Shown here piece after piece: positions 310-62,852 of a stretch of 64,000 nucleotides of DNA. Origin of the DNA: Escherichia coli (GTDB taxonomy: Bacteria; Pseudomonadota; Gammaproteobacteria; Enterobacterales; Enterobacteriaceae). The notes under the pieces are model-generated. The model worked only from the letters and a program-made list of their open reading frames with translations, did no database searches and was not told where the DNA came from. The translations under genes were made by a program, and so were the position numbers. Every line of letters starts with the position of its first letter. Positions within the stretch are counted from its first letter, which is position 1. The stretch lies in assembly GCF_009931435.1 (NCBI RefSeq), contig NZ_CP043414.1; one strand, written 5' to 3'.

Positions 310-482
310 AAAGTTCTTTTGTGTTGCATTGCTGGCGTAAATGTCAGCAATGCAGCATTTCCTCACGATTCTCCTTTGACGATCGCACTTTTTGCTCGTT
401 ATGATGGCGTCGCTAGCCTCAGTAAATCCTTACTCCGGCGGTGCGCAACCCGTGCGCGTGAACCACTATCTGAATGCTCATC

Positions 483-1415
483 ATGCCGAAATTTCGAGTT
501 TCTTTATTTAGCCTGGCCCTGATGCTGGCTGTGCCTTTTGCACCACAGGCCGTTGCGAAAACGGCAGCCGCTACCACCGCTTCACAGCCGGAAATTGCCT
601 CCGGTAGCGCGATGATTGTTGATCTGAATACCAACAAAGTGATCTATTCGAACCACCCGGATTTGGTGCGTCCGATTGCGTCTATCAGTAAATTAATGAC
701 CGCGATGGTTGTGCTGGATGCACGATTGCCGCTGGATGAAAAACTGAAAGTGGATATCAGCCAGACGCCGGAGATGAAAGGGGTCTATTCGCGCGTACGA
801 CTGAACAGCGAAATCAGCCGTAAAGAGATGCTGTTGCTGGCGCTGATGTCTTCAGAAAACCGCGCGGCGGCAAGCCTTGCGCACCATTATCCCGGTGGTT
901 ACAAAGCCTTTATTAAGGCGATGAATGCGAAAGCGAAATCGCTCGGAATGAACAACACGCGCTTTGTTGAACCGACCGGATTGTCGGTGCATAACGTTTC
1001 AACTGCCCGTGACTTAACCAAACTGCTCATTGCCAGCAAACAATATCCGTTGATTGGTCAGTTAAGTACTACCAGGGAAGATATGGCAACCTTCTCTAAC
1101 CCGACGTATACGCTGCCGTTCCGCAATACTAACCATCTGGTGTATCGCGATAACTGGAATATTCAGTTAACCAAAACCGGCTTTACCAATGCGGCGGGCC
1201 ATTGTCTGGTGATGCGTACGGTTATCAATAATAAACCGGTGGCGCTGGTAGTGATGGATGCGTTTGGCAAATATACCCATTTTGCCGATGCCAGCCGCCT
1301 GCGTACCTGGATTGAAACCGGTAAAGTGATGCCTGTTCCGGCAGCAGCGTTGAGCTATAAAAAACAAAAAGCCGCCCAGATGGCGGCGGCGGGGCAGACG
1401 GCGCAGAACGATTAA
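483..1415 (+). CDS. pbpG: D-alanyl-D-alanine endopeptidase, penicillin-binding protein 7
   Basis: 313-aa ORF; internal start MPKFRVSL gives the 310-aa product with signal peptide; SxxK motif (SISK) and SxN motif (SEN) present. Confidence 0.9.
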
Positions 1416-1607
1416 GGGTAGGCAGGATAAGGCGTTTACGCCGCATCAGGCATTCGGAGCACAATGCCTGATGCGATGCTTGCGCATCTTATCAGGCCTA
1501 CAAACGTGACGCGTCCGTAGGCAGGATAAGGCGTTCACGCCGCATCCGGCATTCGGTGCACGATGCCTGATGCGATGCTTCTATTTGCATCAGACATCCA
1601 GCCGTAT
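1416..1607. repeat. REP/BIME cluster, at least two REP copies in opposite orientation
   Basis: Repeated gcaggataaggcgtt(t/c)acgccgcatc(a/c)ggcattcgg units and imperfect palindromes tgcctgatgcgatgctt in the pbpG-dld intergenic region. Confidence 0.7.
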
Positions 1608-3323
1608 TTACTCCACTTCCTGCCAGTTTTTCCGCTTACTGGTTTTACCGATCCCCGGATTCATGCTGTTGGTCGGATCGTTCTCGCGATAGAACTTCTG
1701 CAACGTCTCCGGTGCTTTATACAAATGACCGACGTTATGCTCGGCAGGGTATTGCGCGCCGCGCTGCTGTAGCAGTTCCAGCATCTGTTCTTTCAACGCA
1801 TGCACATCCACGCCTTTTTTAACGATGTAATCCTGATGGAAGACATAGCACATAAAATGGCCGTAATAGAGCTTGTGCACCAACTGACTGTCGATCTCCG
1901 GCGGTAAATGCTCATACCATTCGGTGTCGTTACGCCGCAGAGCGATATCCAGCGCCAGAATGTCTTCGACTTCATCGGAATGCACGGCCTGATAACGAAT
2001 TGCTGCGCCCGCAGCGGCGAAACGGTGTAAAAACGCTTTGCTGCCTTCCTCCGGCGTACAGACAAAGAAATCGCCCTCGGCCTGTTTGAAATAATCCACC
2101 AGCCACGATTTAGCTTCGCCGACGCCATCGCCCGCCATTTTTAACAGCAGATGATGTTCATATTTATCGCGCCAGCTTTTCATACGCGGTGGTAAATGGC
2201 TGGGGAACAGGTGACCGAATTTTTGCATCGCACGGTCGGTAAAATGCGGACGGAAGAATTTCACTTTCTCCAGCATCGCATCGGTGCGTCCCTTGAGATT
2301 AAAGAAGAACGGCATCTTGTCGGTGCCTAACTTATCAATCATCAGGAAGGTGTCTTTGCCGTATTTTTCCGCGATATCGTAGATATCCCGGTGCATATAT
2401 TCCCCGGCAACCGGCAGGTTCTCGAAATTAGCCAGGATATGGCGGCGGATTTCGGTCAGTACTTCCGGCTGGTTGGTGCCGATATAAAACACCTGCTGAT
2501 TTTTTTCTGCTTCGAAGGTATCAAGACGTACCGCAAAGACGGCCAGTTTACCGGCGCAACCGGAGGATTCAAACAGGCGATCCGGGTCGGCGTTATAACG
2601 TGCGGGTGTGTCGGCTTCAATATCACGAACGCGGTGGACATAGTCATAATCGTGGGCGTGACGACCATCGTGGCGCACATCGTCATCTTTGATGCGATCG
2701 TCATCCAGCTTGCTAAGGATCTGCTCCGGCGTTTCGCCGAGATCAATCCCCAGATGGTTCACCAGCGTCAGTTTGCCGTCTTCATTTATACGCGCGAATA
2801 ACGACATTTCGGTATACGCCGGGCCACGCTGCACCAGCGAGCCGCCGGAGTTGTTACAAATACCGCCGATGACCGATGCGCCTATACACGATGAGCCAAT
2901 CACCGAGTGCGGTTCGCGTCCCAGCGGTTTGAGGGCTTTTTCCAGCGAATAAAGCGTGGTGCCCGGATAGGCCAGCACCTGTTCGCCCTTGCCAAGAACG
3001 TGCAGCTTGTCGAGACGCAGGGTGCTGATGATCACGATATCGCGATCATAGTCGTTACCGTTTGGCGTCGAGCCTTCGGTCAGACCTGTATTGGCAGCCT
3101 GCATCAGAATAATTTTGTCGGCGGTGACGCAGGCTTTCAGCACCCGCCACAATTCCAGTAGTGAGCCAGGGAAAACGACAGCCAGCGCGTCGCCCTGACC
3201 AGAACGGAAGCCCTTGCGATAGCGGGCCGTTTTTGCGGGATCGGTGAGCAGGTGTGAATGACCGACCAGACGGGCAAGTTCATTCAAAAAGGCTTTATTA
3301 TCAGTTGTTGTCATGGAAGACAT
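1608..3323 (-). CDS. dld: FAD-dependent D-lactate dehydrogenase
   Basis: 582-aa ORF; internal start MSSMTTTDNKAFLNEL gives the 571-aa protein as I recall Dld. Confidence 0.9.
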   Translation of the reverse strand: MSSMTTTDNKAFLNELARLVGHSHLLTDPAKTARYRKGFRSGQGDALAVVFPGSLLELWRVLKACVTADKIILMQAANTGLTEGSTPNGNDYDRDIVIISTLRLDKLHVLGKGEQVLAYPGTTLYSLEKALKPLGREPHSVIGSSCIGASVIGGICNNSGGSLVQRGPAYTEMSLFARINEDGKLTLVNHLGIDLGETPEQILSKLDDDRIKDDDVRHDGRHAHDYDYVHRVRDIEADTPARYNADPDRLFESSGCAGKLAVFAVRLDTFEAEKNQQVFYIGTNQPEVLTEIRRHILANFENLPVAGEYMHRDIYDIAEKYGKDTFLMIDKLGTDKMPFFFNLKGRTDAMLEKVKFFRPHFTDRAMQKFGHLFPSHLPPRMKSWRDKYEHHLLLKMAGDGVGEAKSWLVDYFKQAEGDFFVCTPEEGSKAFLHRFAAAGAAIRYQAVHSDEVEDILALDIALRRNDTEWYEHLPPEIDSQLVHKLYYGHFMCYVFHQDYIVKKGVDVHALKEQMLELLQQRGAQYPAEHNVGHLYKAPETLQKFYRENDPTNSMNPGIGKTSKRKNWQEVE

Positions 3324-5823: not shown

Positions 5824-5852
5824 GTAAGGGCGCGACGTCTGCGCCCTTTGCC
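5824..5852 (+). terminator. Rho-independent terminator after bglX
   Basis: GC hairpin aagggcgcgacgtctgcgccctt followed by T-rich tract just past the bglX stop. Confidence 0.6.
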
Positions 5853-5960
<108 letters not shown>

Positions 5961-6088
5961 AAATATGCCCTTTAAGTATTTATCTGATTCTGCAACTGAA
6001 TCCTTCCGCTCAGGCTAACCCCGCCATTATCAACTATGCTTTTCTCTTAATTCGCTGAAAACAACAGTAAAAGAATGAGGAAAGCATC

Positions 6089-20975: not shown

Positions 20976-21094
20976 ATATTCATCCCTGAAATGTATTAAT
21001 GAAATAAAAGATATTTTACGCGCAATAAATGTTTGGCGCATTAGTTGTTTGAGCGGAAAATATCTGGAAAGCAGATCACAGTAAATAAAAAAAC

Positions 21095-21235
21095 CTGCTG
21101 GTGAGGCAGGTTCTTTTATTTACTACTTTCAGGCCTAACACCACGGCCTGTGCAACATCGTGTTCCAACGAACGAATTATAACCACCGCTGGACCCCGTT
21201 GCAATTAAGATAATGAGATTTATAATCCTGACAGT
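21095..21235 (-). ncRNA. orzO: Candidate OrzO antitoxin sRNA, copy 1 (boundaries approximate)
   Basis: On the minus strand the hairpin aacctgcctcaccagcaggtt is followed by a 7-T run, i.e. a terminator for a transcript running divergently from the zorO leader. Confidence 0.35.
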
Positions 21236-21407
21236 TGGGAGGTTGCGCCGGATCGAACCAATTTCAAGTCCTGGCTACCGGACGGGTGGTGCTGCAGGTG
21301 GTGCCCTGATCCGGAGTGCAACATCGTGGTCCAACATACGTAAACCAGTATCGACAGGCAGTGTAAGGGTAAGGTGCTGGTGTTGCGCTCCTTAATAAGG
21401 AGAGCGG

Positions 21408-21497
21408 ATGGACACGCTGACACAAAAGTTAACCGTGCTCATTGCCGTACTGGAGTTATTAGTGGCTCTGTTACGGTTGATTGATTTGTTGAAGTAA
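21408..21497 (+). CDS. zorO: Type I toxin ZorO, 29-aa hydrophobic peptide, copy 1
   Basis: atg..taa ORF encoding MDTLTQKLTVLIAVLELLVALLRLIDLLK, preceded by ggagag Shine-Dalgarno-like sequence and followed by hairpin gggggaaaataccgcttccccc plus T-tract; matches my recollection of ZorO. Confidence 0.75.
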   Translation: MDTLTQKLTVLIAVLELLVALLRLIDLLK

Positions 21498-21704
21498 CGG
21501 GCAAATTGAAACGCATCTAAGGGGGAAAATACCGCTTCCCCCTTTAATAAAATGATTACTGTTTTTAATAATTCATCATATAACTCATTTTTATTTATAA
21601 ATTCATCGATTTTATATTCAACGCACCATTTGACCGGGATGTAAATATTTATGGTGGGCTATTGGCAAAAAATATCTGGAAAGTAGATCGCAGAAAATAA
21701 AAGA

Positions 21705-21845
21705 ACCTGCTGGTGAGGCAGGTTCTTTTATTTACTACAGTGACGCTAACTTGCTGATTGTGCAACATTTCGTACCAACGAATAAATTATAACCATATCC
21801 ACACTCCATTGCAATTCAGTGAATGAGATTTATAATCCTGCCCGT
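21705..21845 (-). ncRNA. orzO: Candidate OrzO antitoxin sRNA, copy 2 (boundaries approximate)
   Basis: Same minus-strand hairpin plus U-rich tract as copy 1. Confidence 0.3.
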
Positions 21846-22017
21846 TGGGAGGTTGTGCCGGATCGGACCAATTTTAAGTCCTGGCTGCCGGACGGGTGGT
21901 GCCGCAGGCGGTGCCCTGATCCGGAGAGCAACGTTTCGTACCAACATACGTAAACCAGTATCGACAGGCAGTGTAAGGGTAAGGTGCTGGTGTTGCGCTC
22001 CTTAATAAGGAGAGCGG

Positions 22018-22107
22018 ATGGACACGCTGACACAAAAGTTAACCGTGCTCATTGCTGTACTGGAGCTATTAGTGGCTCTGTTACGGTTGATTGATTTGTT
22101 GAAGTAA
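22018..22107 (+). CDS. zorO: Type I toxin ZorO, copy 2
   Basis: Peptide identical to copy 1 despite synonymous nucleotide differences (gcc to gct, tta to cta). Confidence 0.75.
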   Translation: MDTLTQKLTVLIAVLELLVALLRLIDLLK

Positions 22108-22160
22108 CGGGCAAATTGAAACGCATCTAAGGGGGAATACCGTTTCCCCCTTTAATAAAG

Positions 22161-22481
22161 CTATTTTTCTATTTGTTGGATGAATATATTTTGTAGTTCA
22201 CGATTAAAAATTGCTATTACAGTTTTAGGTGATTCACCTCGTAATTTACGCTCATCAATAAATTCATCTCTTATATAAATCAACGCATCATTTATTAGCG
22301 GGTCGACATCTTCTCGATCACGTTGATGAAATGTTGGATGTAGCCGGAATCGCTCCAACCGGTAGACGGAACCAGTAAATAATTCAGAGCGTTTATGGAC
22401 CTCAAGTCTGAAGGAAAACGGATCTTCAGGTACAGGGTCCTCATAATCGTAAATAGCGACCAGCTCTTTTTGCACGATCAT
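22161..22481 (-). CDS. yehK: Small uncharacterised protein YehK
   Basis: 106-aa ORF downstream of yehI; acidic; no known motif. Confidence 0.7.
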   Translation of the reverse strand: MIVQKELVAIYDYEDPVPEDPFSFRLEVHKRSELFTGSVYRLERFRLHPTFHQRDREDVDPLINDALIYIRDEFIDERKLRGESPKTVIAIFNRELQNIFIQQIEK

Positions 22482-22540: not shown

Positions 22541-25500
22541 TTAATGGAAAATGACGTCGGGTGCGCTTAACGCCTCACTCAAATCAAACACATCAAGTGC
22601 GGCAAAAGTGACAGATTTATTGTCACGGTACACTCGAAGAGAACGGAAGCTCATTAGCGCTTTGCTATCAGCACTGTAGTGGTTAAAACCGGGTGAAAAC
22701 TTAAGGACCAGCCGATACTCGCCCAGGTCATAGACACATGCGTCCTCAAAACCTGACTCCCAGCCTTTGTATCGCATTCCCATAAGTTGCCCAACGGTTG
22801 CGGATTTACCTTCCCAGCGAGTCAGGCTGTTACTGGCTGACTCGTCAGGTGTGAGCAGCACTGTGCGCCGCATCAACTGGCGAAAAGGCGGCATAATTTC
22901 GTAATCGGCAAAAACCTGTGCAAATTCACTGCGCATTTCTGCTGTCATTTCTAACGGGTGGGCAATGCCAATCAGATCATCCGCAGGCAGGTCAATTGGC
23001 TCATCTTGTGCGTTGCAGAATTCCCCCTCTGCGGCCACACGAAAGGCGTTGAGTAAACGACGCGGTTCATTTGCCGGATAAACCGCCCATATTAATCGCT
23101 GAGTAACCAGGCGGGTAAAGGGATGATTAACAAACAGAGAATGAAAATCTGCCAGCGACCAGCGTCGGGTGGTGCGCAGGGCAGTTTCAAGACGTGGGAG
23201 CAGGTTTTTGCTCACCTGAGTGGCATCTTTTTTTAGCCCTTTTAGTCGGGCCAGTGCCTCGGGTGCTTTCAGTTGATCGTCATCGGCGCGCAACCGGGGA
23301 ACGCTTTTCTGGCGAACGTTTTGCTGATCAAAGATAACCGGGTTGAGGTTTTCATCGAAGCGAACGGTAAACTGCCGGGGTCCAAAATCAAATATCAACG
23401 CCTGCGGATCATCCAGGCCCAGTGTTGGGACTAATCTGTCCGCTAACTCTTCCTGGCTTAGTCCACGATTTTCTGCGACCACCTGAAGAAATTCCGCCGC
23501 GTTATCACGTAAGGGACGGGATTTCGCCCGTTGCGATATATGATGCAGCTGTATCAGCGCCATATCATTATTCATCAGGGTAAGTATGTTCAGGCCACTG
23601 ACGGCACGGGCAGATTTGCCTTCCTGTGGCCAGGCGAGGATCTGTGTTGTCAGATCCCGAGCCGTGCTTTCGTCACCAAAGAGACTTAACGCCAAAAAAG
23701 CCCAGTTGTCTTTTGCGGGGGCGCCAGCCTGTTGCCAGGCGGTGAAGAGATCCCTGGCAAAAGCGGCCAGCGTTTGTGGCTGGCAGAACGTTTTCAGTTG
23801 TTCCAGCCCACAATAAAAACGTCCGCCCTGGGTAAAGCGCAGCATTTCGCCGATAATTTCCAGAGCATCATCAGTAACAGGTTGATTATTCGTGATAATT
23901 CTCGGTCTGGACCACATTGTCGGATGCCAGAAATCAGGGGCTTTGGGAATGCGTGCCGGGTAAATGTCCATTGGACCCTGTTTAAGTAATTGCTCTAGGG
24001 AAGGCCATACATCTGTACGCTGCCAACGATTGGCTACAGTTTGTAGCAATTCGCCATGTCCTTGTTCGTAAAGTAAACGCAGGGCAAGTAATGCAGCTTC
24101 GCTATTATCGCTGGATTTGGTGTAGACAAGAGGGATAAGTGCCGTAGCCGTATGCTCCGGCCATTGTAAAATCCACTGGCGAGCCAGATTACGCTGGCCC
24201 GCAAAACGATGCCAGACGCGGGCAACGGGCAGAGCCAGTTCTGTTGCGCCAAAATGAATCAGCAGCGGAAATATCTCTTTGGGATGTCGGGCAAAGGCGG
24301 TGATTAATCCGGGCAAAGCATCGGTACCCAGGACACTTAACAGATATTCTACCCCGGTGTAATGAAAATCAGCCGCGACAATTTGTTGCCAGCACGATAC
24401 CGCCATTTCGCGCGGCATCTGCGCGATAAGGTACAGATTCCAAATCCCCCAACGCTTTTCATTACCATAGTAAAATCCGTGCTGAAAAGTTCGCCACCCT
24501 CCCATCAACGCAATGCTATCTTGTGCCAGTAATGATTTGGTGGCTTCTTCCCGGTACTGTTTAGATTTGGCCTGATGCGCGTGATAAGTATGCAAAAGTC
24601 CTATTGATGTGTATTCTTGCAGTTGCTGAGTATCAAAGGCATCCAGCTGTCCATTAAGAAGACGCTTATTAAATTCCAGGCTATGAACGTCAAAACCTAA
24701 TTCCCGCAAGAAGGTATCCGCCCCTCTGTTAGCAAGACGTTCGTCAAAAGACATGGCGCTAAAATGGTCAATTGCAGTTTGCTGTTCCGGCGTCCAGTGT
24801 TTATTCGGCGACTTGTACGCTTGCGGTACAAGCGTAAGTTCAGGTAGCGAAAAGTGAGTTATGGAAGTCTTTTTCCTGCCACGCCATGGTGGTGAAACGA
24901 GGATTTCAGGCAGACTGCTGTTATTGGTGCTATCAATAACCGGTTTTGGCGAAGCCGATAAATAACTATTCACCACTGCCCGGGCTTGAGTACTTAACGA
25001 CGGGATCACCTCTTCTGCCAGTTGTGGCTGCGATGCCATCAGCGTTTGTAACAGCGTATGCCAGTATTCATCACGTGCTTTTTGCTGTGCAGGCAGCTTT
25101 TTGTCTTCGATGATAGGATAACCAGGGCGCGCAGGGGGGGCTTTTAACGCCAGCAGTTCTGCCAGTGCGGCGAGCGTCGCATGGGGGAAGTTTTTACTGT
25201 ATTTAGCCACACGTTGCAGGCTGGGTTTGTTTTTATCAGCCACCAGTAGCAAGGTGCGGATGACTTGCGGATGGTTAATTTGTACCAGCAGACTGCCGCA
25301 ATCTTCTTTATGTGCATACATCGCGAGGCGCGGAACGGCTGCCAGTCCTTGTTCGCGCAAAAGGGCAGCGCAGGCCGCGTAGCCGAAGTGGTTTTCATGC
25401 GACATGTAGCTGGCTTCGCGATCGCTAAATATATCCTGACTCCAGTAGTGATCGAGTTTTCTGACCGCGCTGGGGTCATTAGCAACAACTTTTAACCACT

Positions 25501-26197
25501 CCTTAGAATGATAATGAGTCCGTGGGCATTCAAGGCCTATCAACTCATTGGCGATTTCTGGTTTCTCCGGGAGGATGAGTGCAATAAAAGGACGGCGAAC
25601 TTTGGGTATTCCTGGCAGTGCGGCAATGAGTTTGTCGGCGCAACGCTGCCAGCAGCTTTCCTCTGCCAGAGAGAGATGCTTACGCAGTCGGAGATCGAAT
25701 TCGTTATAGGTTTCTGAGCGATAACCATAGCCATAGCCATAGTCCTCCTTCTGATACTGCAATGTTACTACCAGAGGATCACTCTCATAACACCGTACAA
25801 TAAACTGGCGTGCAATCACCACCTCAGTCGCATATTCCAGCCCCTCTTGTTGGACGATTTCGTCGAGTAACTGTTGGCTATCATTTTGCGCGATACAGGC
25901 TAGCGCCGCCATTGTCCGGGCCGGAATTGAGGGTTTGTGCTCGCCGATCAAGTTGATGGCTTGCGTAATGGCCGACTGCCACTCCAGTGAAAAATTTTCA
26001 TAACGCCAGACAATGTTTTTTTTCTTCTCAGCAATGTGTAGCAATTTATCACCCAGTGTCTGGATGAGGCTTTCAGTGATAACAGGCACCGGTTCGCCCG
26101 GCCAATTGCGATGGCTGAGTGGTGTTTTGCCTTTTTTATATTTCAGTTCCAGTTGGGCGTTATCCGCCAGCCACGGTAATTCCTTGTCCATGCTCAT
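22541..26197 (-). CDS. yehI: Giant DUF4132-family protein YehI (no WGR domain)
   Basis: 1218-aa ORF; C-terminal region is paralogous to the two upstream genes (shared FDFGPRQFTV block); start is 4 bp from the upstream stop. Confidence 0.8.
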   Translation of the reverse strand: MSMDKELPWLADNAQLELKYKKGKTPLSHRNWPGEPVPVITESLIQTLGDKLLHIAEKKKNIVWRYENFSLEWQSAITQAINLIGEHKPSIPARTMAALACIAQNDSQQLLDEIVQQEGLEYATEVVIARQFIVRCYESDPLVVTLQYQKEDYGYGYGYRSETYNEFDLRLRKHLSLAEESCWQRCADKLIAALPGIPKVRRPFIALILPEKPEIANELIGLECPRTHYHSKEWLKVVANDPSAVRKLDHYWSQDIFSDREASYMSHENHFGYAACAALLREQGLAAVPRLAMYAHKEDCGSLLVQINHPQVIRTLLLVADKNKPSLQRVAKYSKNFPHATLAALAELLALKAPPARPGYPIIEDKKLPAQQKARDEYWHTLLQTLMASQPQLAEEVIPSLSTQARAVVNSYLSASPKPVIDSTNNSSLPEILVSPPWRGRKKTSITHFSLPELTLVPQAYKSPNKHWTPEQQTAIDHFSAMSFDERLANRGADTFLRELGFDVHSLEFNKRLLNGQLDAFDTQQLQEYTSIGLLHTYHAHQAKSKQYREEATKSLLAQDSIALMGGWRTFQHGFYYGNEKRWGIWNLYLIAQMPREMAVSCWQQIVAADFHYTGVEYLLSVLGTDALPGLITAFARHPKEIFPLLIHFGATELALPVARVWHRFAGQRNLARQWILQWPEHTATALIPLVYTKSSDNSEAALLALRLLYEQGHGELLQTVANRWQRTDVWPSLEQLLKQGPMDIYPARIPKAPDFWHPTMWSRPRIITNNQPVTDDALEIIGEMLRFTQGGRFYCGLEQLKTFCQPQTLAAFARDLFTAWQQAGAPAKDNWAFLALSLFGDESTARDLTTQILAWPQEGKSARAVSGLNILTLMNNDMALIQLHHISQRAKSRPLRDNAAEFLQVVAENRGLSQEELADRLVPTLGLDDPQALIFDFGPRQFTVRFDENLNPVIFDQQNVRQKSVPRLRADDDQLKAPEALARLKGLKKDATQVSKNLLPRLETALRTTRRWSLADFHSLFVNHPFTRLVTQRLIWAVYPANEPRRLLNAFRVAAEGEFCNAQDEPIDLPADDLIGIAHPLEMTAEMRSEFAQVFADYEIMPPFRQLMRRTVLLTPDESASNSLTRWEGKSATVGQLMGMRYKGWESGFEDACVYDLGEYRLVLKFSPGFNHYSADSKALMSFRSLRVYRDNKSVTFAALDVFDLSEALSAPDVIFH

Positions 26198-26200
26198 TCC

Positions 26201-29200
26201 TTATTCAAACAGGGCTTCGATGTCGTTAATTAACTCGCTAGCGGTGATGTCATCGAGTGCGGAGAACTGCGCTTCCTGTGTTGAATCAATCCCCCAGCCA
26301 TAGCTTTCTGCTTTGCCTTCCCATAGCCACAGCTTGCTTAAGAGTTGCTCGGCACTGAGTTCGGCTGGCGACATACCAACTGCAAATCCTTCATCGATTT
26401 CCATGATTAATGACCAGCGGCCCAGAGGTTTGATCATCCAGCCGATCCAGCCACCGTCCTGCGGTTCACCACGCATCCAGCCTTTATTCGCCAGCCCCAT
26501 TACCCGACCGCTCGGGCATTTTCTGCCTGCCCAGCGGGTCAATTCGCTGGCATTGCGCTCGGTTTCTGTCAGGGCGTAACTGTTACGGTCGAGCTGGCGG
26601 AACGGCGGTAGCAGTTCGTAGTCGGCAAAAAGCTGACCAAAGGCGGCAGCATCCGTGGGTGATATTTCCAGAACGTGAGGAATGCCAACAGAGATATCGC
26701 CTTCCGGCAGGGTGAAAAGATCATCGTCAGCGGTGCTGTAGCTGTTATCTTCCGCCACACGGAAGCACGCCAGTAACTGGTTGTCTGCGCTATAAATGCC
26801 CCAAATCAGACGGCGGGTTAAGTGGCAGACCAGCGGATGCTCAACCAGAAAGAGCTGAAAGTTTTCTGGCGACCAGCGGCGGCGCAGGCACATGGCGGAT
26901 TCCAGCCTTGCCACCTGCTGGGCGGCAACGGTACGCGCATCTTTTTTCAGCAGTTTGTAGCGGTTAACTGCATCGTTCGCTTGAGTTTCATCATCGCTTT
27001 TGTTCGGTTTAGGCAAGTCTTTCAGGCGGCTGCCGGAAGCATCACGCACAAACGGTTTTAAGGTTTCATCAAAGCTGACGGTGAACTGCCGTGGCCCGAA
27101 ATCCAGCAGCAGCGAACCGTTATCATCCAGACCGAGATCCGGTGCTAACCGGTCTTCAAGCTCCGCCACCGTGAGTTCGCGGCTCTCGGCAATGTCGGCA
27201 ATTTTTTCTTTTGCCCGCTCCTGTAATGCTTTGAATTTCAGTTTCTGGGCGATGCCGTTAAGCTGCATCAGGGCGATATCACTACCGATAGCAGCGAGAA
27301 TATCCAGCCCGACGGTGGCGCGTTTATGCTGGGATTCACCAGGCCAGGCGCGAATCAAAGGCGTCAGTTTGCGGGCGGTATCATCGTTGCCGAGAACACC
27401 TAACGCAGTGAACGCCCAGCTTTCTTTCGACGGTGCGCCAGCGGTCTGCCAGGCGGTAAACAGATCCCAGGCAAATTCAGCCAGTGAGTCGGCGGTACAG
27501 GCATCTTTCACCTGCAATAATCCCGCATACAGAGCCTCTTCCTGAGGGAAGCGGAGCATTTCACCGAGGTGGAGGAGGGCGTTATCTGGCAGTGATTGGG
27601 CGTTTGCTTTTAATACCGGGCGTGTCCAGAGCGATGGCTGATAAAAGGCCGGAAGTGTCGGGATTTTAGTCGGGTGATTATCTAAGGGATCGAGCGCAAG
27701 TAGAGCGTTCACCGCATCGGTTACTTCCGGCTGGTTATAACGCTGGGCGATTTCTTGCAGTAATGACGGATAACCACTTTCAATCAACATACGTAAGGCG
27801 GCGCGGGCGTTATCCTGGGCTTCACCAGCTTTGCCGAGTGCCGCAGGCAACAGGCCGATAATGGCATGTTCCGGATATTTCAGCAGCCAAGTGCGGGCGT
27901 CTTGTCGTAGAGTTTTGAGTTTGTTAAAGGCGCGGGCGACGGCAGGAGCCAGTTCCGTTGCGGCAAAATAATTAGCAACCGCAAAACCTTCTTGAGGGTA
28001 GCGTGAAAACGAGTGTAGAAAACCACTCATACCTGCCAGTCGCAAATAAAGCATGACAGGTTTTACCGCGGTATGCGGCTCTTTGCTGAGAAACTCCCAT
28101 AGTTTAATCGCTTTTTGCATAGGTAAAAAGGGAAGTGAGTTGAGATGCCACTCCCCCTGATACGGTGCATGGTGGGCTTTAAACATTTGGATGAGTGTAG
28201 CGAAGTCCTCACGTTCCCATGCGTCAATTGCCGAGTCAGAAGCGCCGATATATTTATATGTGTCAAAATCCCAGCGGCGATACCCCAGCGAGTAAAGGAA
28301 ATCTTTAGCACCTTCACCTGGCTTATGCGATTCCCAGTCCCAATGAGTTTGAAACTCTTTTGCTTCTGTGTCGGTTATTGTGCATATGGATTTGAGTTTG
28401 AGCGGTGCTAAATCCAACACCGGAATCGTCGATTTTTTCTTTTTCGAAAGCCAGGGAGGTAAGACTAATACGGCTGGCAGTAGAGCGGCGCAGGCATGGT
28501 TTGACGGTTGTATCAGTTGTTGCTGGCATGATTTCAGCACTTCAACTGCGGCTGTCGAGAGCCAGGGAGTGACCTGTTCTGCCAGTGCCGGTTGCGAGAT
28601 AAGCATCGTCATTAGCATAATGCGCCAACTATTCTCTTCTTTTTGCGCAAGAAGTTCCGCCAGTGCTGCCAGTGCTGCGTGTGGGAACGCAGCGCAGGCT
28701 TTCGTCATTCGATCGTGACAGCGTTTAGTAAGCCCGGCTACACGTATAAGCAGTGTTAATGCGAACGGATGATTGATATGACGCAACACATCGGCGCAGT
28801 AGTCACTTGCGGCATAGGGAGCAAATCGGGGCAGGGCTGCAACACCTTGCTCCTGTAATACGGTGGCTGACAATATCGCACCACAATAGTAATCATCAAA
28901 AATGGCATATGGCTCGTGATATTTTTCTAATGAGGCAAGAATGTGCTCATCAGTCGCCACTATTTTTAGCCACTCAAGCGAGGGTAATTTTTTTTTCCCC
29001 AGTAGACGCTGGGCAATTTCATGTGCAATTTCTGGTTTTTCGGGTAATAACAAAGCAATTAATGGTTGCCGCCATTCTGGAATATGTGGAATTGCGGCAA
29101 TAAGTTTTTGTGCACATTTTTGCCAGAGAGACTCTTCCGCCAGTGATAAATGTTTCCGTAGGCGTAATTCAAAACTGGAATATTGCTGCAGGTTATCAGG

Positions 29201-29989
29201 TGCAATACCAGACGGCAGAATAATAATGGTATTATTCGCATAATCCCATTCAATATCAATCTGTTGAAGATGTATTACTACATCAGTAGCATATTCCAGG
29301 CCACCTTCCTGAACGAGCTGATCCATAACATCCTCACGCTCTTTATATCTCGTGCACTTCAGTTCAAGTGCCGTGAGTACAGCCATTACTGGTGATGGTA
29401 ACTGTGTTGTTTTCAGGCAGTCGATCTGACTGAGCGCCTGGGAGATGGCGTTTTGCCATTCTAAAGAACAGGCGCTGAAATCAAATGTGGCTGTTTTATT
29501 ATCCCGTTGCGACACGCTACAGGCTAAGCGACGTAACTGGGTCAAGTTGTCTGCTTGCTGAACAGGAACTCCGGGAAAGCGGCGATGGCTTAACGTGGTG
29601 TGTACAACTTCGGGCGGAAAAACGACAGCAATATCTTTCGCCAGCCACGGTAAAACATCATCTGTATTTTTGTCAGCCACACGGGCTTCTGCTACGCAAA
29701 AGGGTTGTTCCTGAATAATGGTGGATAAGGCCGCTACCTTGAGAGAATCCGTTACCGTTTGGGAAGGTTGCAAAGAATTATCCTTCGCTTGCCCCACATA
29801 CCCCTTCTTCACCTTCTCCGCAATCAGCCTCAGTTCCGCTTTTTCCGCCGCCGCAGCATCAGCAAAGCTTTTTACCTGGCTTTGCCCGTTGGTACTGACT
29901 TTGCCCCAACTAATATGCAGCTCGTTTCCCTGTTGCTCCACTGCCCAGAATTTATGTGATTTTTCGTCCTGATAAATATAGGTTTTCAT
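26201..29989 (-). CDS. WGR-domain plus DUF4132 protein, molR/yehH-like paralog A (intact)
   Basis: 1262-aa ORF; N-terminus MKTYIYQDEKSHKFWAVEQQGNELHISWGKV is WGR-like; aaggaa Shine-Dalgarno-like sequence upstream; C-terminus ends LDDITASELINDIEALFE. Confidence 0.8.
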   Translation of the reverse strand: MKTYIYQDEKSHKFWAVEQQGNELHISWGKVSTNGQSQVKSFADAAAAEKAELRLIAEKVKKGYVGQAKDNSLQPSQTVTDSLKVAALSTIIQEQPFCVAEARVADKNTDDVLPWLAKDIAVVFPPEVVHTTLSHRRFPGVPVQQADNLTQLRRLACSVSQRDNKTATFDFSACSLEWQNAISQALSQIDCLKTTQLPSPVMAVLTALELKCTRYKEREDVMDQLVQEGGLEYATDVVIHLQQIDIEWDYANNTIIILPSGIAPDNLQQYSSFELRLRKHLSLAEESLWQKCAQKLIAAIPHIPEWRQPLIALLLPEKPEIAHEIAQRLLGKKKLPSLEWLKIVATDEHILASLEKYHEPYAIFDDYYCGAILSATVLQEQGVAALPRFAPYAASDYCADVLRHINHPFALTLLIRVAGLTKRCHDRMTKACAAFPHAALAALAELLAQKEENSWRIMLMTMLISQPALAEQVTPWLSTAAVEVLKSCQQQLIQPSNHACAALLPAVLVLPPWLSKKKKSTIPVLDLAPLKLKSICTITDTEAKEFQTHWDWESHKPGEGAKDFLYSLGYRRWDFDTYKYIGASDSAIDAWEREDFATLIQMFKAHHAPYQGEWHLNSLPFLPMQKAIKLWEFLSKEPHTAVKPVMLYLRLAGMSGFLHSFSRYPQEGFAVANYFAATELAPAVARAFNKLKTLRQDARTWLLKYPEHAIIGLLPAALGKAGEAQDNARAALRMLIESGYPSLLQEIAQRYNQPEVTDAVNALLALDPLDNHPTKIPTLPAFYQPSLWTRPVLKANAQSLPDNALLHLGEMLRFPQEEALYAGLLQVKDACTADSLAEFAWDLFTAWQTAGAPSKESWAFTALGVLGNDDTARKLTPLIRAWPGESQHKRATVGLDILAAIGSDIALMQLNGIAQKLKFKALQERAKEKIADIAESRELTVAELEDRLAPDLGLDDNGSLLLDFGPRQFTVSFDETLKPFVRDASGSRLKDLPKPNKSDDETQANDAVNRYKLLKKDARTVAAQQVARLESAMCLRRRWSPENFQLFLVEHPLVCHLTRRLIWGIYSADNQLLACFRVAEDNSYSTADDDLFTLPEGDISVGIPHVLEISPTDAAAFGQLFADYELLPPFRQLDRNSYALTETERNASELTRWAGRKCPSGRVMGLANKGWMRGEPQDGGWIGWMIKPLGRWSLIMEIDEGFAVGMSPAELSAEQLLSKLWLWEGKAESYGWGIDSTQEAQFSALDDITASELINDIEALFE

Positions 29990-30001
29990 TGCTAATTCCT
30001 T

Positions 30002-33000
30002 TTAATTAAACAGTGATTCAATGTCGTTAATCAGCTCGCTGGCGGTGATGTCGTCGAGTACGGAGAAAGTGGGTGAGGATTGCTTACCATAGCGATCATA
30101 AGGGGCGGTGATTTTTACGCTTTCGACAGGCAGCAGGTCGCTATACCCCGTTTCGCCATAAATTAATGAAAAAGGTTCTGTTTCAAGTTCGAGAGCGCCA
30201 TAAGGGGTAGATTTGCGCATCGCATAGACGCTGCCGCTTTCTTCCAGACGTTGCCAGCCTCGGCGCTCTAGCCCGACAATACGTCCGGCCTGACAGAGCT
30301 GTCCTTGCCAGCGTGTCAGGTCGTGGGTATTCCGTTCATTATCAGCAAGACGATAACTACCACGATCGAGCTGTTGGAAGGGGGGAAGCAGTTCGTAATC
30401 AGCGTAAATTTGCCTGAATGCAGCGGCAGATTCAGGGGGGATTTCCAGCACATGCGGTATACCGATGTTTCCTGCTGGCAGCGTGAATAACTCATCCTGC
30501 ATATCGCTGTAAGTGCTGTCTTCTGCGACCCGGAAGCAGGCAATCAGCGTGTTTTCCTCAGTATATACTCCCCATAACAGCCGTCGGGTTAAGTGACGTA
30601 CCAGCGGATGCTCCACCAGAAACAGGCGGAACTGTTCTGCCGTCCAGCGTCTGCGCTGGCACATAGCCTGCTCCAGACGATCAATCTGCTGACTGGCAAT
30701 GGCGCGCACATCTTTCTTCAATTGTTTGAAGAGGTTAACGGCGTCAGTTGCCAGTGTTTTATCATCGCTCTGATTTGGTTTGGGTAAATCTTTCAGGACT
30801 TTGCCGTTTGCATCGCGCACTACAGGTTTTAAGGTTTCGTCAAAACCAACGGTGAATTGACGTGGGCCGAAATCCAGTATCAGCGAGCCACTGCTATCAA
30901 GCCCTAAATCTGAAGCCAGGCGGTCTTCCAGTTCAGCCATTGTCAGTCCGCGATTTTCGGCGACCATATTGATTTTGTCGCGGGCGTGTTCCTGCAATGC
31001 TTTGAATTTAATCTTTTGTGCAATGCCATTAAGCAGCATCAGCGCAATATCGCTACCGATACTGGCTAACACATCCAGCCCAGAAACCGCACGTTTATGC
31101 TGGGATTCACCCGGCCAGACCCGGATAAGCGGGGTTAGTTTACGCGCGGTGTCGTCATTGCCTAAAATCCCCAGCGAGGTAAATGCCCAGTTTTCTTTTG
31201 CGGGCGCGCCAGATTCCATCCATGCCGTGTAGAGATCCCAGCCAAAGTCAGCCAGTGATTCCCGGGTGAAGATTTCTCTAATGATATCCAGTCCAGCGTA
31301 GGCGGTAATGTCGCGAGGGAAGCTCAACATAGTGCCCAGGTGGCGCATAGCGTCATCGGACAGAGGCAGATTGTTACTTTTAAGCCGTGGTCTGCGCCAT
31401 AAGGTGAACTGATAAAAGCCGGGCAGTGGGGCGATTTTTGCGGGATATTCTTCCAGCGGATCGCTATCGAACAATGTTGCCAGCGCAGCTAAAACATCTG
31501 GTTGATTATATCCTTGGGCAATTTCCTCAATCGTTTCTCGCTGGTTTAAATTCACCAGCAGGCGAAGCGCCTGGCGGGCACAATCACGATCTTTTCCTTG
31601 TTTGCCCAGTGCCACAGGAAGTAGCCCGGCGGTGGCATGGCGTGGGTAATCAGTTAGCCAGTTTCGCGTATCTTCATAAGACATTTTTTTCTGTAATTGT
31701 TGCGCCATCGGTAAGGCCAGGTCACTGACACCGAGGAAAAAGGGGAAGAAGCACAGACGTCGTGGATCACGTTGCAGGCAGGTCATAAATGAAGGTATGG
31801 CGGCGCTACCAAAAATTGCCAGAATATTTCCCTCATCAGAGTAGTTATCTTCTTTGACTATCTGGTTAAGAAAAGAAATGGCCTGTTGACCAGGCAGGTA
31901 ACAGAGGGCAATGAGATTCCAGCTTTTGTATGCATTGTTATGGTATTGCACAAATTCAGCATTGAGTGCTGGAAAATCGAAGCGTAGCAGGGCATCAACG
32001 GCGCTTTGTGGCGCCGGAATTTTTTCGTAGATTTTTTCTCCGCTTTCCCGCCATTTTTCAAAACCAAGATGCCACAGTATTTGTTGCTCCGGTGTAAGCG
32101 GTATTAAGTGTTTCTCCCAGCTTGCTTTTTTTATCGGCGGCAGGTCGGTAAACAATGTTTGTTTTGTCGCCTGCTGTTGGGCTATTTGCTGGAAGCGGGT
32201 GACAAGGTAAGTACGGGTTAGTCTTTTGGCAATCTCGGGAGTGACATCAGAAACAGAAGGAACTGGAAGCACTGGAAGATCAAACACAGGCGTATTTTTC
32301 TTTTTCTCTTTGGTCATCCAGGGCGGCGAAACAAACAGCTCCGGCAACATATCCACAGTGGCATATTCACATTCTTCAGCTACTGGCTGCGGACGACATT
32401 CAGATAAGATGCCTGCCGCTTTAGCATTAACCCAGGGAATGACGTCACATACCAACTCTGGCCTGATGGTAATCAGTTTGATAAGTGCGTTACGCCACTG
32501 TGCATCTTCGTGTATTGCAAGCAAAGTAGCATAAGCGGCAATAGCTGCAGCGGGATGTTTTTGACAGGCTTTGCTTAAGTATTCCAGGTGCTTTTTCTTG
32601 CCAATCACAGCGAGGATCAGAATTTGAATCGCATCCGGGTGATTCGTTTTCCATAGCCATTTGACAAGATTTTCAGTCTCGCTGTTGCGCTCGAAAAGAT
32701 AAGTGGGATTGTCAGAATGCTCTTCCGTAAACTCAAGAAGGATCTGGCTTACACCCCGAATTCCATTATTCGCCAGCAACATTGCCAGATAAGCGCGAAA
32801 ATTACGAAAATCACGATACAACGGTGGGAAGTCGTATTTTTCCACTGTACTCAGAGCAGTATCATCGGTTATCACCAGTCTTAACCAGGTCATCGCCGGA
32901 ACGTTTTGGTCTGCATAGCGTAGAGCCATAGCATTGGCAATATCCGGGCGTTCAGGGAGCAGTAACGCGGCAAAAGGTTGCCGTGCTGGAGATAGCGAGG

Positions 33001-33811
33001 GAATAGCCGCGAGTACTTTATCTACACAGCGTTGCCACTCATCTTCTGAAGTGAGTGAAAGATGATGACATAGACGTTGATGCCAACTAGGTAGCGATTC
33101 TGCTTCGTGATTAGGTGGAATGATGGTGGTTACTGCGCCTTTTACTGGTTTATATTTGAGTTGAATAGCGAGAAGGGCAATTTCAACGGCACTTTCCAGA
33201 CCACAGCGAATGACTAAGTCATCGACCAATTCATCTGCAGAGTAAGAGTTCCAAAAACTCCAAAGCAATGCTGCATCAGATTGCGCACTTCCTGTCTGTT
33301 GACTACCCAGAATTCGCATTTGTAACTCAGCAAACGCCTGCTGCCAGTTTTCTGGATAAGAACGGTAATTGTTGTCGGGATCATATGCCCTGGTGTTATC
33401 TGCAATACGCTTCCATATCTCACCGTCTTTGCGCAGATAATTGATCTCTCTGGGGCGAGAGCGATGTGGAAAAGCAAATCGGTTAATATCGTCGGTTAGC
33501 GGAATGGCTGCATCATCAGCCAGCCATGGGCGTTTGTTTTTACTCTCAGGTGAAGTTTCAACTTCAGGAGTGACTTTGGTGACGGGGGGGATATGCACGT
33601 TTGCCGAAGCGTCTTCCACATAGCCTTTTTTCGTTTTCTCAGCGATAAGCTTCAGTTCCGCTTTTTCCGCCGCCGCAGCATCCGCAAAGCTTTTTATCTG
33701 GCTTTGCCCTTGGGTGCCAACTTTTCCCCAACTGATATGCAACTCGTTACCTTGCTGCCCCACCGCCCAGAATTTATGCGATTTTTCGTCCTGATAGATA
33801 TAACTCTTCAT
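30002..33811 (-). CDS. WGR-domain plus DUF4132 protein, molR/yehH-like paralog B (intact)
   Basis: 1269-aa ORF; N-terminal 65 aa nearly identical to paralog A; agggaa Shine-Dalgarno-like sequence upstream; C-terminus ends LDDITASELINDIESLFN. Confidence 0.8.
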   Translation of the reverse strand: MKSYIYQDEKSHKFWAVGQQGNELHISWGKVGTQGQSQIKSFADAAAAEKAELKLIAEKTKKGYVEDASANVHIPPVTKVTPEVETSPESKNKRPWLADDAAIPLTDDINRFAFPHRSRPREINYLRKDGEIWKRIADNTRAYDPDNNYRSYPENWQQAFAELQMRILGSQQTGSAQSDAALLWSFWNSYSADELVDDLVIRCGLESAVEIALLAIQLKYKPVKGAVTTIIPPNHEAESLPSWHQRLCHHLSLTSEDEWQRCVDKVLAAIPSLSPARQPFAALLLPERPDIANAMALRYADQNVPAMTWLRLVITDDTALSTVEKYDFPPLYRDFRNFRAYLAMLLANNGIRGVSQILLEFTEEHSDNPTYLFERNSETENLVKWLWKTNHPDAIQILILAVIGKKKHLEYLSKACQKHPAAAIAAYATLLAIHEDAQWRNALIKLITIRPELVCDVIPWVNAKAAGILSECRPQPVAEECEYATVDMLPELFVSPPWMTKEKKKNTPVFDLPVLPVPSVSDVTPEIAKRLTRTYLVTRFQQIAQQQATKQTLFTDLPPIKKASWEKHLIPLTPEQQILWHLGFEKWRESGEKIYEKIPAPQSAVDALLRFDFPALNAEFVQYHNNAYKSWNLIALCYLPGQQAISFLNQIVKEDNYSDEGNILAIFGSAAIPSFMTCLQRDPRRLCFFPFFLGVSDLALPMAQQLQKKMSYEDTRNWLTDYPRHATAGLLPVALGKQGKDRDCARQALRLLVNLNQRETIEEIAQGYNQPDVLAALATLFDSDPLEEYPAKIAPLPGFYQFTLWRRPRLKSNNLPLSDDAMRHLGTMLSFPRDITAYAGLDIIREIFTRESLADFGWDLYTAWMESGAPAKENWAFTSLGILGNDDTARKLTPLIRVWPGESQHKRAVSGLDVLASIGSDIALMLLNGIAQKIKFKALQEHARDKINMVAENRGLTMAELEDRLASDLGLDSSGSLILDFGPRQFTVGFDETLKPVVRDANGKVLKDLPKPNQSDDKTLATDAVNLFKQLKKDVRAIASQQIDRLEQAMCQRRRWTAEQFRLFLVEHPLVRHLTRRLLWGVYTEENTLIACFRVAEDSTYSDMQDELFTLPAGNIGIPHVLEIPPESAAAFRQIYADYELLPPFQQLDRGSYRLADNERNTHDLTRWQGQLCQAGRIVGLERRGWQRLEESGSVYAMRKSTPYGALELETEPFSLIYGETGYSDLLPVESVKITAPYDRYGKQSSPTFSVLDDITASELINDIESLFN

Positions 33812-44869: not shown

Positions 44870-45006
44870 TCGCAACCAAACGACTCGGGGTGCCCTTCTG
44901 CGTGAAGGCTGAGAAATACCCGTATCACCTGATCTGGATAATGCCAGCGTAGGGAAGTCACAGACCACCAGGTCATTGCTTCTTCACGTTATGGCAGGAG
45001 CAAACT
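44870..45006 (+). promoter_or_regulatory. Thiamine pyrophosphate (TPP) riboswitch in the thiM leader
   Basis: Canonical aptamer ggggtgcccttctgcgtgaaggctgagaaatacccgtatcacctgatctggataatgccagcgtagggaa, then an expression platform containing the ggcaggag Shine-Dalgarno sequence just before the thiM ATG. Confidence 0.9.
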
Positions 45007-51743: not shown

Positions 51744-52796
51744 ATGACAGATATTGCGCAGTTGCTTGGCAAAGACGCCGACAACCTTTTACAGCACCGT
51801 TGTATGACAATTCCTTCTGACCAGCTTTATCTCCCCGGACATGACTACGTAGACCGCGTAATGATTGACAATAATCGCCCGCCAGCGGTGTTACGTAATA
51901 TGCAGACGTTGTACAACACCGGGCGTCTGGCTGGCACAGGATATCTTTCTATTCTGCCGGTTGACCAGGGCGTTGAGCACTCTGCCGGAGCTTCATTTGC
52001 CGCTAACCCGCTCTACTTTGACCCGAAAAACATTGTTGAACTGGCGATCGAAGCGGGCTGTAACTGTGTGGCGTCAACCTACGGCGTGCTGGCATCGGTA
52101 TCGCGGCGTTACGCGCATCGCATTCCATTCCTTGTCAAACTTAATCACAACGAGACGCTAAGTTACCCGAACACTTACGATCAAACGCTGTATGCCAGCG
52201 TGGAGCAGGCGTTCAACATGGGCGCGGTGGCGGTTGGCGCGACCATCTATTTTGGCTCGGAAGAGTCACGTCGCCAGATTGAAGAAATTTCTGCGGCTTT
52301 TGAACGTGCGCACGAGCTGGGCATGGTGACCGTGCTGTGGGCCTATTTGCGTAACTCCGCCTTTAAGAAAGATGGCGTCGATTATCACGTTTCGGCTGAC
52401 CTGACCGGCCAGGCTAACCATCTGGCGGCAACCATAGGCGCAGATATCGTCAAACAAAAAATGGCGGAAAATAACGGCGGCTATAAAGCGATTAATTACG
52501 GTTATACCGACGATCGCGTGTACAGCAAGTTGACCAGCGAAAACCCGATTGATCTGGTGCGTTATCAGTTAGCTAACTGCTATATGGGTCGGGCTGGGTT
52601 GATAAACTCCGGCGGTGCTGCGGGCGGTGAAACTGACCTCAGCGATGCAGTGCGTACTGCGGTTATCAACAAACGCGCTGGCGGAATGGGGCTGATTCTT
52701 GGACGTAAGGCGTTCAAGAAATCGATGGCTGACGGCGTGAAACTGATTAATGCCGTGCAGGACGTTTATCTCGATAGCAAAATTACTATTGCCTGA
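51744..52796 (+). CDS. fbaB: Class I fructose-bisphosphate aldolase
   Basis: Start [16 protein letters not shown] gives 350 aa. Confidence 0.9.
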
Positions 52797-52799
52797 TAC

Positions 52800-52950
52800 G
52801 CCTCATACGAACAGCACCACCCCGTAGGACGGATAAGGCGTTTACACTGCATCCGGCAACCTATGCCTGATGCGACGCGGAAGCGTCTTATCATGCCTAC
52901 ATAGCACTGCCACGTATGTTTACACCGCATCCGGCATAAAAACACGCGCA
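52800..52950. repeat. REP/BIME cluster
   Basis: ggacggataaggcgtttacactgcatccggcaa and gcctgatgcgacgc REP-like palindromes after fbaB. Confidence 0.65.
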
Positions 52951-53051
52951 CTTTGCTACGGCTTCCCTATCGGGAGGCCGTTTTTTTTTGCCTTTTACTC
53001 CTCGAACAATTTTCACATTGTCGTTTTTGTGATCGTTATCTCGACATTTAA

Positions 53052-61059: not shown

Positions 61060-61217
61060 GAATATTTTTTGGTAAGCGTCAAACATGCGCGTTCTGGTTG
61101 TGCTTAGCCGGAACCTGTGCGAGCACGATGCCGTTACGTGAAAGGCATCGTGCTATGAAGGGAGATTCTATCGATGTGGTCAATGGAAGACGGTGACCAG
61201 GGATAGGGCTTATGCAT

Positions 61218-61244
61218 AAAAAATAAGCCCGTGTAAGGGAGATT
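61218..61244. other. Unoccupied P2-type phage attachment core (attB) within the cyaR 3' end
   Basis: aaaaaataagcccgtgtaagggagatt matches the P2 att core as I recall it; no prophage genes are present between yegR and yegQ. Confidence 0.6.
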
Positions 61245-61304
61245 ACACAGGCTAAGGAGGTGGTTCCTGGTACAGCTAGCATTTTATGGGTTATGTTTTT
61301 CAGC
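61218..61304 (-). ncRNA. cyaR: Hfq-dependent, CRP-activated sRNA CyaR (RyeE)
   Basis: Minus-strand sequence gctgaaaaacataacccataaaatgctagctgtaccaggaaccacctccttagcctgtgtaatctcccttacacgggcttatttttt matches CyaR as I recall it, including the terminator hairpin and U-tail. Confidence 0.85.
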
Positions 61305-61388
61305 GAAACGGATGATAACCTTAATAAATGCAGCTGTATGTGATCGGTTTCTAAGAATTTTCCATCCGGGAAAAATAATCGAAATTAA

Positions 61389-62750: not shown

Positions 62751-62852
62751 AATTCTCTCGTTCTGATGACAGGTCAGATCCGCTTCACCTGATGAAGCGG
62801 TTAGGGGAGTGCCCCCACTTTAAGGGCGGGCATTGTAGCGCAATCGGCGGGT

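Follow-up and report, generated by a model that had tools for sequence, protein, structure and literature searches.

REP and BIME elements at four gene ends in a 64-kb stretch of Escherichia coli DNA, with a rare allele at pbpG-dld

Four sites in a 64,000-nucleotide stretch of Escherichia coli DNA (here called the window), lying after pbpG (site 1), bglX (site 2), fbaB (site 3) and gatR (site 4), hold members of the REP (palindromic unit) family of E. coli in the arrangements described for BIMEs, a reading to which we assign a probability of about 0.9. A sequence-only reading of the window had proposed REP-like palindromes at these four places, and the half-site scan, de novo repeats, nhmmer and Rfam all find them there, at positions within a few to about 25 bases of those it gave. 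The gene names it had used (pbpG, dld, bglX, osmF, fbaB, gatY, gatR and yegS) agree with the RefSeq annotation of matching genomes and with the K-12 alignment. Its view that the elements mark operon boundaries holds in that they sit at 3' ends of transcription units as ordinary E. coli REP/BIME sequences. Work on REPs and BIMEs goes back about 40 years, and neither the elements nor their polymorphism is new; the result thus carries little weight as a discovery, and what is mildly notable in it is a rare, terminator-replacing allele at site 1 and the natural series of 0, 1, 2 and 3 units to which that allele belongs. The window runs from pbpG to yegP, reversed with respect to K-12 MG1655 (~2.165-2.225 Mb); it is not K-12 itself, to which its segments are 94.7-99.5% identical. 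The REP units and the features around them are as follows.

1371-1390, minus strand: terminator-like hairpin for dld, GCCGCC...GGCGGC with the tail TTTTTGTTTT, within the pbpG coding sequence at its 3' end (terminator scan)
1413-1415: pbpG stop codon
1418-1452, plus strand: Y REP no. 1 of site 1, GTAGGCAGGATAAGGCGTTTACGCCGCATCAGGCA, 2 nt past the pbpG stop (repeat finder, half-site scan, nhmmer)
1465-1501, minus strand: Z2 REP with intact GTAG, separated from Y no. 1 by a 12-nt linker, in head-to-head orientation (half-site scan, nhmmer)
1517-1551, plus strand: Y REP no. 2, opening the second 99-bp unit, 15 nt from Z2 in tail-to-tail orientation (repeat finder, half-site scan, nhmmer)
1564-1600, minus strand: degenerate Z2 REP after a 12-nt linker, left half-site only (nhmmer E 0.07), 7 nt before the dld stop
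1608-1610, minus strand: dld stop codon
5814-5816: bglX stop codon
5826-5848, plus strand: G+C-rich non-REP hairpin directly after bglX, present in most alleles
5849-5878, minus strand: Z1 REP of site 2 with a short loop and the tetranucleotide GAAG (half-site scan, nhmmer)
5879-5911: L-type linker of 33 nt with a predicted IHF match inside
5912-5946, plus strand: consensus Y REP, tail-to-tail with Z1 (repeat finder, half-site scan, nhmmer)
5956-5970: small hairpin after the Y of site 2
6089: osmF start
52794-52796: fbaB stop codon
52824-52858, plus strand: Y REP of site 3, 27 nt past the fbaB stop (repeat finder, half-site scan, nhmmer)
52864-52900, minus strand: Z2 REP, 5 nt from Y (naRNA4 model, 56.1 bits over 52827-52897)
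52917-52936, plus strand: half Y (right half) without GTAG, a direct repeat with 52840-52858 (nhmmer E 1.2e-3)
52958-52989, plus strand: non-REP intrinsic terminator with a stem of 10 bp and then T9, 21 nt past the REPs of site 3
53100: gatY start
59352-59354: gatR stop codon
59364-59398, plus strand: lone, decayed Y REP of site 4 with GTAT for GTAG, 9 nt past the gatR stop (repeat finder, half-site scan, nhmmer)
59436-59438, minus strand: yegS stop codon, 37 nt from the site 4 Y

The half-site scan, which sought GCCKGATGCG, a gap of 3-22 nt and CTTATCMGGCCTAC with up to 4 mismatches, returned 8 full REPs in the 64-kb window, against a mean of 0.03 and a maximum of 1 in 200 dinucleotide-preserving shuffles; a consensus scan of this kind was the check that the sequence-only reading had itself suggested. 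Two other approaches do not depend on the consensus strings of the half-site scan, namely, a consensus-free repeat finder and an nhmmer profile built from the eight full REP copies of the window. The repeat finder recovered (i) a family, D6, of five 40-nt Y copies in one orientation, starting at 1415, 1514, 5909, 52821 and 59361, (ii) a 64-nt family, D5, with a 99-bp period at site 1, and (iii) a family, D9, that corresponds to the half Y of site 3. The profile matched the eight full copies with E values of 1.9e-11 to 4e-6 as well as the partial copies at 52917-52936 (E 1.2e-3) and 1564-1578 (E 0.07), and it gave no further match in the window below E ~0.3, so that the list of REPs in the earlier reading is complete for the window. 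When aligned, the eight copies share the frame GTAGGC..GATAAG...GCATC.GGCA and have the REP form of about 30-40 nt, GTAGGCCGGATAAG...GCATCCGGCA; by eye, the four stretches show the motifs GTAGGCCGGATAAGGCG...GCATCCGGCA and TGCCTGATGCG...CTTATCAGGCCTAC. Every unit is predicted to fold into a hairpin with internal loops, as expected of an imperfect palindrome. Rfam offers a curated test that is independent of these: its model RF02564 scored 76.9 bits at 1421-1498 (plus strand), 46.7 bits at the second unit of site 1, 56.1 bits at site 3, 42.2 bits at site 2 and 26.2 bits at site 4. Like the other methods, it pointed to no place in the 64 kb outside the four sites.

The four sites also behave as REPs do in number and placement. 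With queries that contain sites 1 and 2, the median number of matching places per genome is 28-33 across 5,425 E. coli genomes, which is the high copy number and dispersal of the REP family, and the 10 REP units per 64 kb are near the genome-wide density implied by the K-12 REP number, about 600 (PMC8266576). All units are extragenic, lying between a stop codon and the next gene, and the first REP of each site follows the stop codon by 2-32 nt. Two of the sites lie between convergent and two between tandem genes, in agreement with published proportions of about 60% for convergent and 40% for tandem pairs (bioRxiv 10.64898/2026.03.23.713779). All five Y units are on the plus strand by their GTAG; with 4 independent sites, the two-sided P is ~0.125, which is not significant.

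The earlier reading had further held that the palindromes account for short spurious open reading frames and for the secondary structure at these places. The structural part is borne out by RNA folding, with z scores from -3.4 to -7.7. The part on reading frames is not supported, since their number is not in excess: there are 2-6 open reading frames (at least 20 aa) per site compared with 3.4-5.7 in random segments of equal length. The frames that overlap the REP sites are simply not genes, and in annotation they should not be called such. That the palindromes might be Rho-independent terminators, or generic G+C-rich hairpins with a chance resemblance to REPs, has virtually no probability. Such a reading can draw on the stable folding at gene ends and on the true non-REP hairpins that adjoin the REPs at 5826-5848, 5956-5970 and 52958-52989; however, no REP hairpin is followed by a T-run, and none was flagged by the terminator scan, in which only the separate hairpins at 52958-52989 (plus strand) and 1371-1390 (minus strand) qualify as Rho-independent terminators. 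Moreover, the REP pattern is observed 8 times where 0.03 are expected per window, and these sequences of 35-37 nt come back at all four sites, which are unlinked to one another, with tens of copies in each genome. It is this sequence-family evidence that rules out the chance-hairpin or terminator reading.

BIME-1 elements are defined as a single copy of z1 plus y with a long L linker that often holds an IHF site, and BIME-2 elements as tandem z2 plus y with short linkers and a copy number that varies between strains (PMC3333891). Site 1 (1418-1600) consists of two tandem 99-bp Y-Z2 units with linkers of 12, 15 and 12 nt, the two units being 94% identical to each other, and both of its Y units carry the variant GGCAGG, against GGCCGG in the Y of site 2. 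The degenerate Z2 at 1564-1600 is the product of a complex indel (net -18 bp) that took the 3' arm and the GTAG end, and this fourth REP is intact in strain 2020CK-00188. With Y and Z2 in alternation, short linkers and a tandem number that varies between strains, site 1 is a BIME-2 as judged from its sequence. A further hallmark of the BIME-2 class is binding and cleavage by DNA gyrase in vivo. On the pbpG strand, the RNA of site 1 folds with a predicted energy of -97.8 kcal/mol (z = -7.7), and the 3' segment of the dld strand that contains the site (1365-1612, 248 nt) with -118.1 kcal/mol (z = -7.4). The terminator scan found no terminator-like site on the plus strand within 1416-1607, and no promoter-like site was found within site 1. 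The hairpin for dld at 1371-1390 is conserved in K-12, and, given its position, the predicted dld 3' untranslated region takes in all of the site 1 BIME.

The alleles of site 1, aligned by eye from raw sequence, show how rare this arrangement is. The sequence-only reading had called REP palindromes expected in E. coli intergenic regions, which is true of the family and does not extend to this locus, where any BIME is present in just 20 of 5,426 complete E. coli genomes. In K-12, pbpG and dld are separated by a 35-bp spacer without a BIME that contains CGGATGGC-N6-GCCATCCG followed by TAATTTTTAC, a hairpin that the scan reads as a terminator on the pbpG strand (-18.8 kcal/mol, z = -5.3) and that is also found in FCI1, AF3, NCTC86 and ATCC 25922; the short allele length occurs in 58 of 59 evenly sampled chromosomes. 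Among the 20 BIME carriers, 10 are like the window, 4 have an intact or diverged fourth REP, 2 have three units and 4 have one unit. The BIME alleles lack ~19 nt of the common allele, the left hairpin arm included, which makes them a replacement and not a clean insertion.

The rarity of site 1 suggests that, in the lineage of the window, RAYT may have recently transposed a REPIN/BIME into a pbpG-dld spacer that was empty before. This fits the 20 of 5,426 genomes and the short allele in 58 of 59 chromosomes, the 94% identity of the two units, the intact GTAG in three of the four site 1 REPs and the range of 1 to 3 units among carriers, yet we consider it unlikely on several grounds: (i) there is no clean empty site, given the ~19 nt replaced; (ii) the carriers come from unrelated sources and include GF4-3, whose copy is just 95.7% identical; (iii) a search of E. 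coli genomes found no donor copy above ~90% identity, the best being aceA-aceK; and (iv) other Escherichia species have REP sequence at the same junction. The last point comes from a scan of the genome collection for the junction, anchored on the dld 3' end, in which two other Escherichia lineages, 90-93% identical to the window, showed REP-derived sequence at pbpG-dld. One of them has a Y-Z2 unit with different flanks, and the other, Escherichia sp. E1V33, has a linker and a Z2-derived hairpin with the right flank TCCAGCCGTATTTA as in the window. REP-derived sequence at this junction must be older than, or have been exchanged beyond, the lineage of the window, and the findings in these two lineages, together with the diverged carriers, favour an old polymorphism or import by recombination over the recent insertion. 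Separately, a 21-nt pattern match to the dld end in CAMDFC010000099.1, a MAG labelled Chitinophaga pinensis, has flanks unrelated to pbpG-dld and was set aside as chance, not contamination.

Site 2 (5849-5946) is a BIME-1 by its arrangement, a single copy made of a 30-nt Z1, a 33-nt linker and a 35-nt Y. The linker holds a candidate match, ATTCAAGAGGTTA, to the IHF consensus WATCAANNNNTTR at 5888-5900 (minus strand) with 1 mismatch, for which 0.023 are expected per 33-nt segment, and the RNA of the site folds with z = -3.6. The site has at least five length alleles. In an even sample of 59 chromosomes, the 401-bp span of the window was seen once, and spans of ~380 bp 15 times, 337 bp (K-12) 25 times, 318 bp (CFT073) 12 times and 277 bp 6 times. 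According to the alignment, the 401-bp class is the full BIME-1, the ~380-bp class has a truncated Z1, and the 337-bp class has Y only, Z1 being missing in K-12; the 318-bp class is without the first hairpin and keeps part of the linker plus Y, and the 277-bp class has no REP. The edges of the site 2 block carry a CCCTTT direct repeat.

Site 3 (52824-52936), a Y-Z2 pair with a 5-nt linker plus a half Y, is best described from its composition as BIME-2-like or atypical, and its RNA folds with z = -3.4. Two alleles were found there, the form shared by the window and K-12 being common; the short form, which lacks 78 bp and has one intact Y, occurs in 9 of the 30 genomes sampled, ST131 among them. 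The indel is flanked by the direct repeat GTTTACNC(T/C)GCATCCGGCA, and it is this bounding of the 78-bp indel by a direct repeat that accounts for the half Y. Since the fbaB stop codon precedes them and a strong intrinsic terminator follows, the site 3 REPs should belong to the fbaB mRNA. The earlier description of the palindromes as clusters applies to sites 1-3 and fails at site 4, which is a solitary REP, not a cluster. The Y of site 4 has a weakened loop-proximal stem and folds with z = -4.0, and the length of the site is fixed in 28 of 30 sampled genomes, the remaining two being without gatR. The gatR gene of the window (58575-59354) is intact and encodes 259 aa; the K-12 copy is split by IS3E at the position matching about 58877-58879.

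The state of the GTAG tetranucleotide bears on mobility. The E. coli TnpA_REP tolerates no change in it (PMC8266576). GTAG is kept in six of the eight full copies in the alignment, with GAAG in the Z1 of site 2 and GTAT in the Y of site 4, and neither partial copy (the degenerate Z2 of site 1 and the half Y of site 3) has it; since 4 of the 10 units thus lack a usable GTAG, these are fossils as regards recognition by RAYT and mobility. REPs, which are non-autonomous, are thought to be spread by a single-copy RAYT/TnpA_REP transposase that would act on single-stranded REP hairpins, and this is the accepted model of their origin and spread (PMC8266576, PMC3333891). Once spread, they may be reshaped by slippage or recombination between repeats.

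The score of 76.9 bits at 1421-1498 (plus strand) exceeds the gathering threshold of RF02564, 59.5 bits, which raises the question of whether site 1 encodes an sRNA like naRNA4, the RNA of a Y-Z2 pair that would be processed, bound by HU and used in condensing the chromosome. We regard this as very improbable. The second unit of site 1 and site 3, at 46.7 and 56.1 bits, lend it some colour, although 1421-1498 alone passes the threshold, the rest scoring 56.1, 46.7, 42.2 and 26.2 bits. The Y/Z2 pairs of REP325 served to define the family (PMC4550694), and RF02564 is in effect a generic model of Y-Z2 REP pairs, so that a match places a sequence in the family but does not indicate a dedicated gene; in addition, the opposite strand also scores (44.8 bits), and site 1 holds no promoter-like site. 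The nucleoid function of the founding member is itself disputed: a preprint from laboratories involved reports no stable HU-crfDNA-naRNA4 complex, an unchanged nucleoid upon deletion or overexpression of REP325, and about 1-2 copies of REP325 RNA per cell (bioRxiv 10.64898/2026.03.23.713779). In annotation, the naRNA4 match at 1421-1498 is better labelled a REP pair than a dedicated sRNA gene.

Several other features of the window were observed alongside the REP sites. Among 5,426 complete E. coli genomes in RefSeq, the best match to the 36-58 kb region (22.7 kb) is 97.5%; around sites 3 and 4, the window is 99.8-100% identical to some strains, and the pbpG-dld flanks are 99-99.5% identical to those of BIME carriers. 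This mosaic relatedness suggests a poorly sampled lineage with recombination tracts. Upstream of pbpG, a Peptidase-S11 RNA motif lies at 398-478 (plus strand, 72.8 bits), and upstream of thiM, a TPP riboswitch lies at 44876-44972 (plus strand, 71.5 bits), both being expected cis-regulatory elements. At 21057-22174, two tandem type I toxin-antitoxin copies of the zor-orz type lie within a tandem duplication of ~610 bp, with Rfam OrzO-P matches at 21087-21162 and 21699-21772 (minus strand; 98.9 and 87.3 bits); K-12 keeps just about 220 bp of homologous sequence in this region. Three tandem paralogous open reading frames of ~3.8 kb (1218, 1262 and 1269 aa), yehI/yehH-like and with internal direct repeats spaced 3.7-3.8 kb, occupy 22541-33811 (minus strand); 29990-33615 is without a K-12 counterpart, K-12 having yehI and a yehH pseudogene. 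Between yegP and trhP, an insertion of ~780 bp relative to K-12 (62842-63621) carries the reading frames 62853-63149 and 63151-63447 (minus strand), a ParE-toxin/ParD-antitoxin pair (PF05016, E 3.5e-13; PF03693, E 7.3e-19). The remnant of the K-12 cryptic prophage PR-X (ogrK-yegZ, ~600 bp) is missing from the window at 61210-61306, and at the cyaR 3' end (cyaR, 61221-61306, minus strand) the two K-12 alignment blocks overlap over 61210-61235 (26 bp), which is consistent with an attachment-site repeat.

As to function, the hairpins are placed in the 3' regions of pbpG/dld, bglX, fbaB and gatR/yegS, where, by analogy with published work on other REPs, transcribed REP hairpins would serve as context-dependent transcription attenuators, in part Rho-dependent, and as blocks to 3'-to-5' exonucleases. 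A recent preprint describes REPs as local, context-dependent 3'-UTR elements that attenuate readthrough and block decay, associates those between convergent genes with higher expression of both genes, and finds no global effect of REPs on half-life (bioRxiv 10.64898/2026.03.23.713779). At site 1, the BIME replaces the terminator-like hairpin common at this locus, so that formation of the pbpG 3' end probably depends on the BIME. The hairpin for dld lies within the end of pbpG, and dld transcripts are therefore predicted to cross the whole BIME, up to 1371-1390, which they probably do. According to Liang, Rudd and Deutscher in 2015, a REP within about 15 nt of the stop codon reportedly lowers translation of the upstream gene; by analogy, translation may be lowered in pbpG, where the gap is 2 nt, and in gatR, where it is 9 nt.

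A further proposal, which we put forward tentatively and hold to be possible but doubtful, is that site 1 represents a natural terminator swap, found in ~0.4% of E. coli genomes, in which a BIME-2 took the place of the intrinsic terminator of pbpG between this gene and the convergent dld, and that the alleles with 0, 1, 2 and 3 units measurably change the expression of pbpG and dld. The alleles could do so by altering how efficiently transcription terminates and how stable the mRNA is, and possibly also the termination of translation. If it were true, it would offer a ready-made allelic series for testing what REPs do. The pbpG-dld, bglX-osmF and fbaB-gatY spacers are compact and well-delimited cases of BIME allelic series, with units that number 0 to 3 and are whole or truncated, and the three could be used as natural controls for REP-dependent termination and mRNA stability.

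Compared with known systems, the sites resemble REPIN/RAYT elements in holding inverted REP pairs with a 5' GTAG, the type of substrate that the E. coli TnpA_REP cleaves and rejoins in vitro (PMC8266576, PMC3333891). They differ from these in that the 64-kb window has no RAYT gene, no copy lies within a REPtron and 4 of the 10 units are without a usable GTAG. Site 2 is like the BIME-1/RIB/RIP elements in its short-loop Z1, its 33-nt linker with a predicted IHF match, its consensus Y and its single copy at the bglX 3' end; it departs from them in that the IHF match has one mismatch and is predicted only, and in the tetranucleotide GAAG of Z1. Unlike this full BIME-1, the bglX locus in most E. 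coli has a truncated Z1, Y alone or no REP.

Site 1 is closest to the BIME-2 elements of REP325 (yjdM-yjdN) and aceA-aceK, with which it shares the alternation of Y and Z2, short linkers and tandem units, numbering 1, 2 or 3 depending on the strain. The aceA-aceK BIME, at about 90% identity, is its closest family member, and its first unit passes the Rfam naRNA4 threshold derived from REP325, although REP325 has six units where site 1 has two, with the last Z2 damaged. It also differs from these elements in that K-12, like about 99.6% of the complete E. coli genomes, has no BIME at its locus but a small terminator-like hairpin. Polymorphism of BIMEs between strains is documented by Bachellier 1997 (cited in PMC3333891) and Ton-Hoang 2012, and the presence/absence and copy-number variation at sites 1-3 is behaviour already reported for BIMEs.
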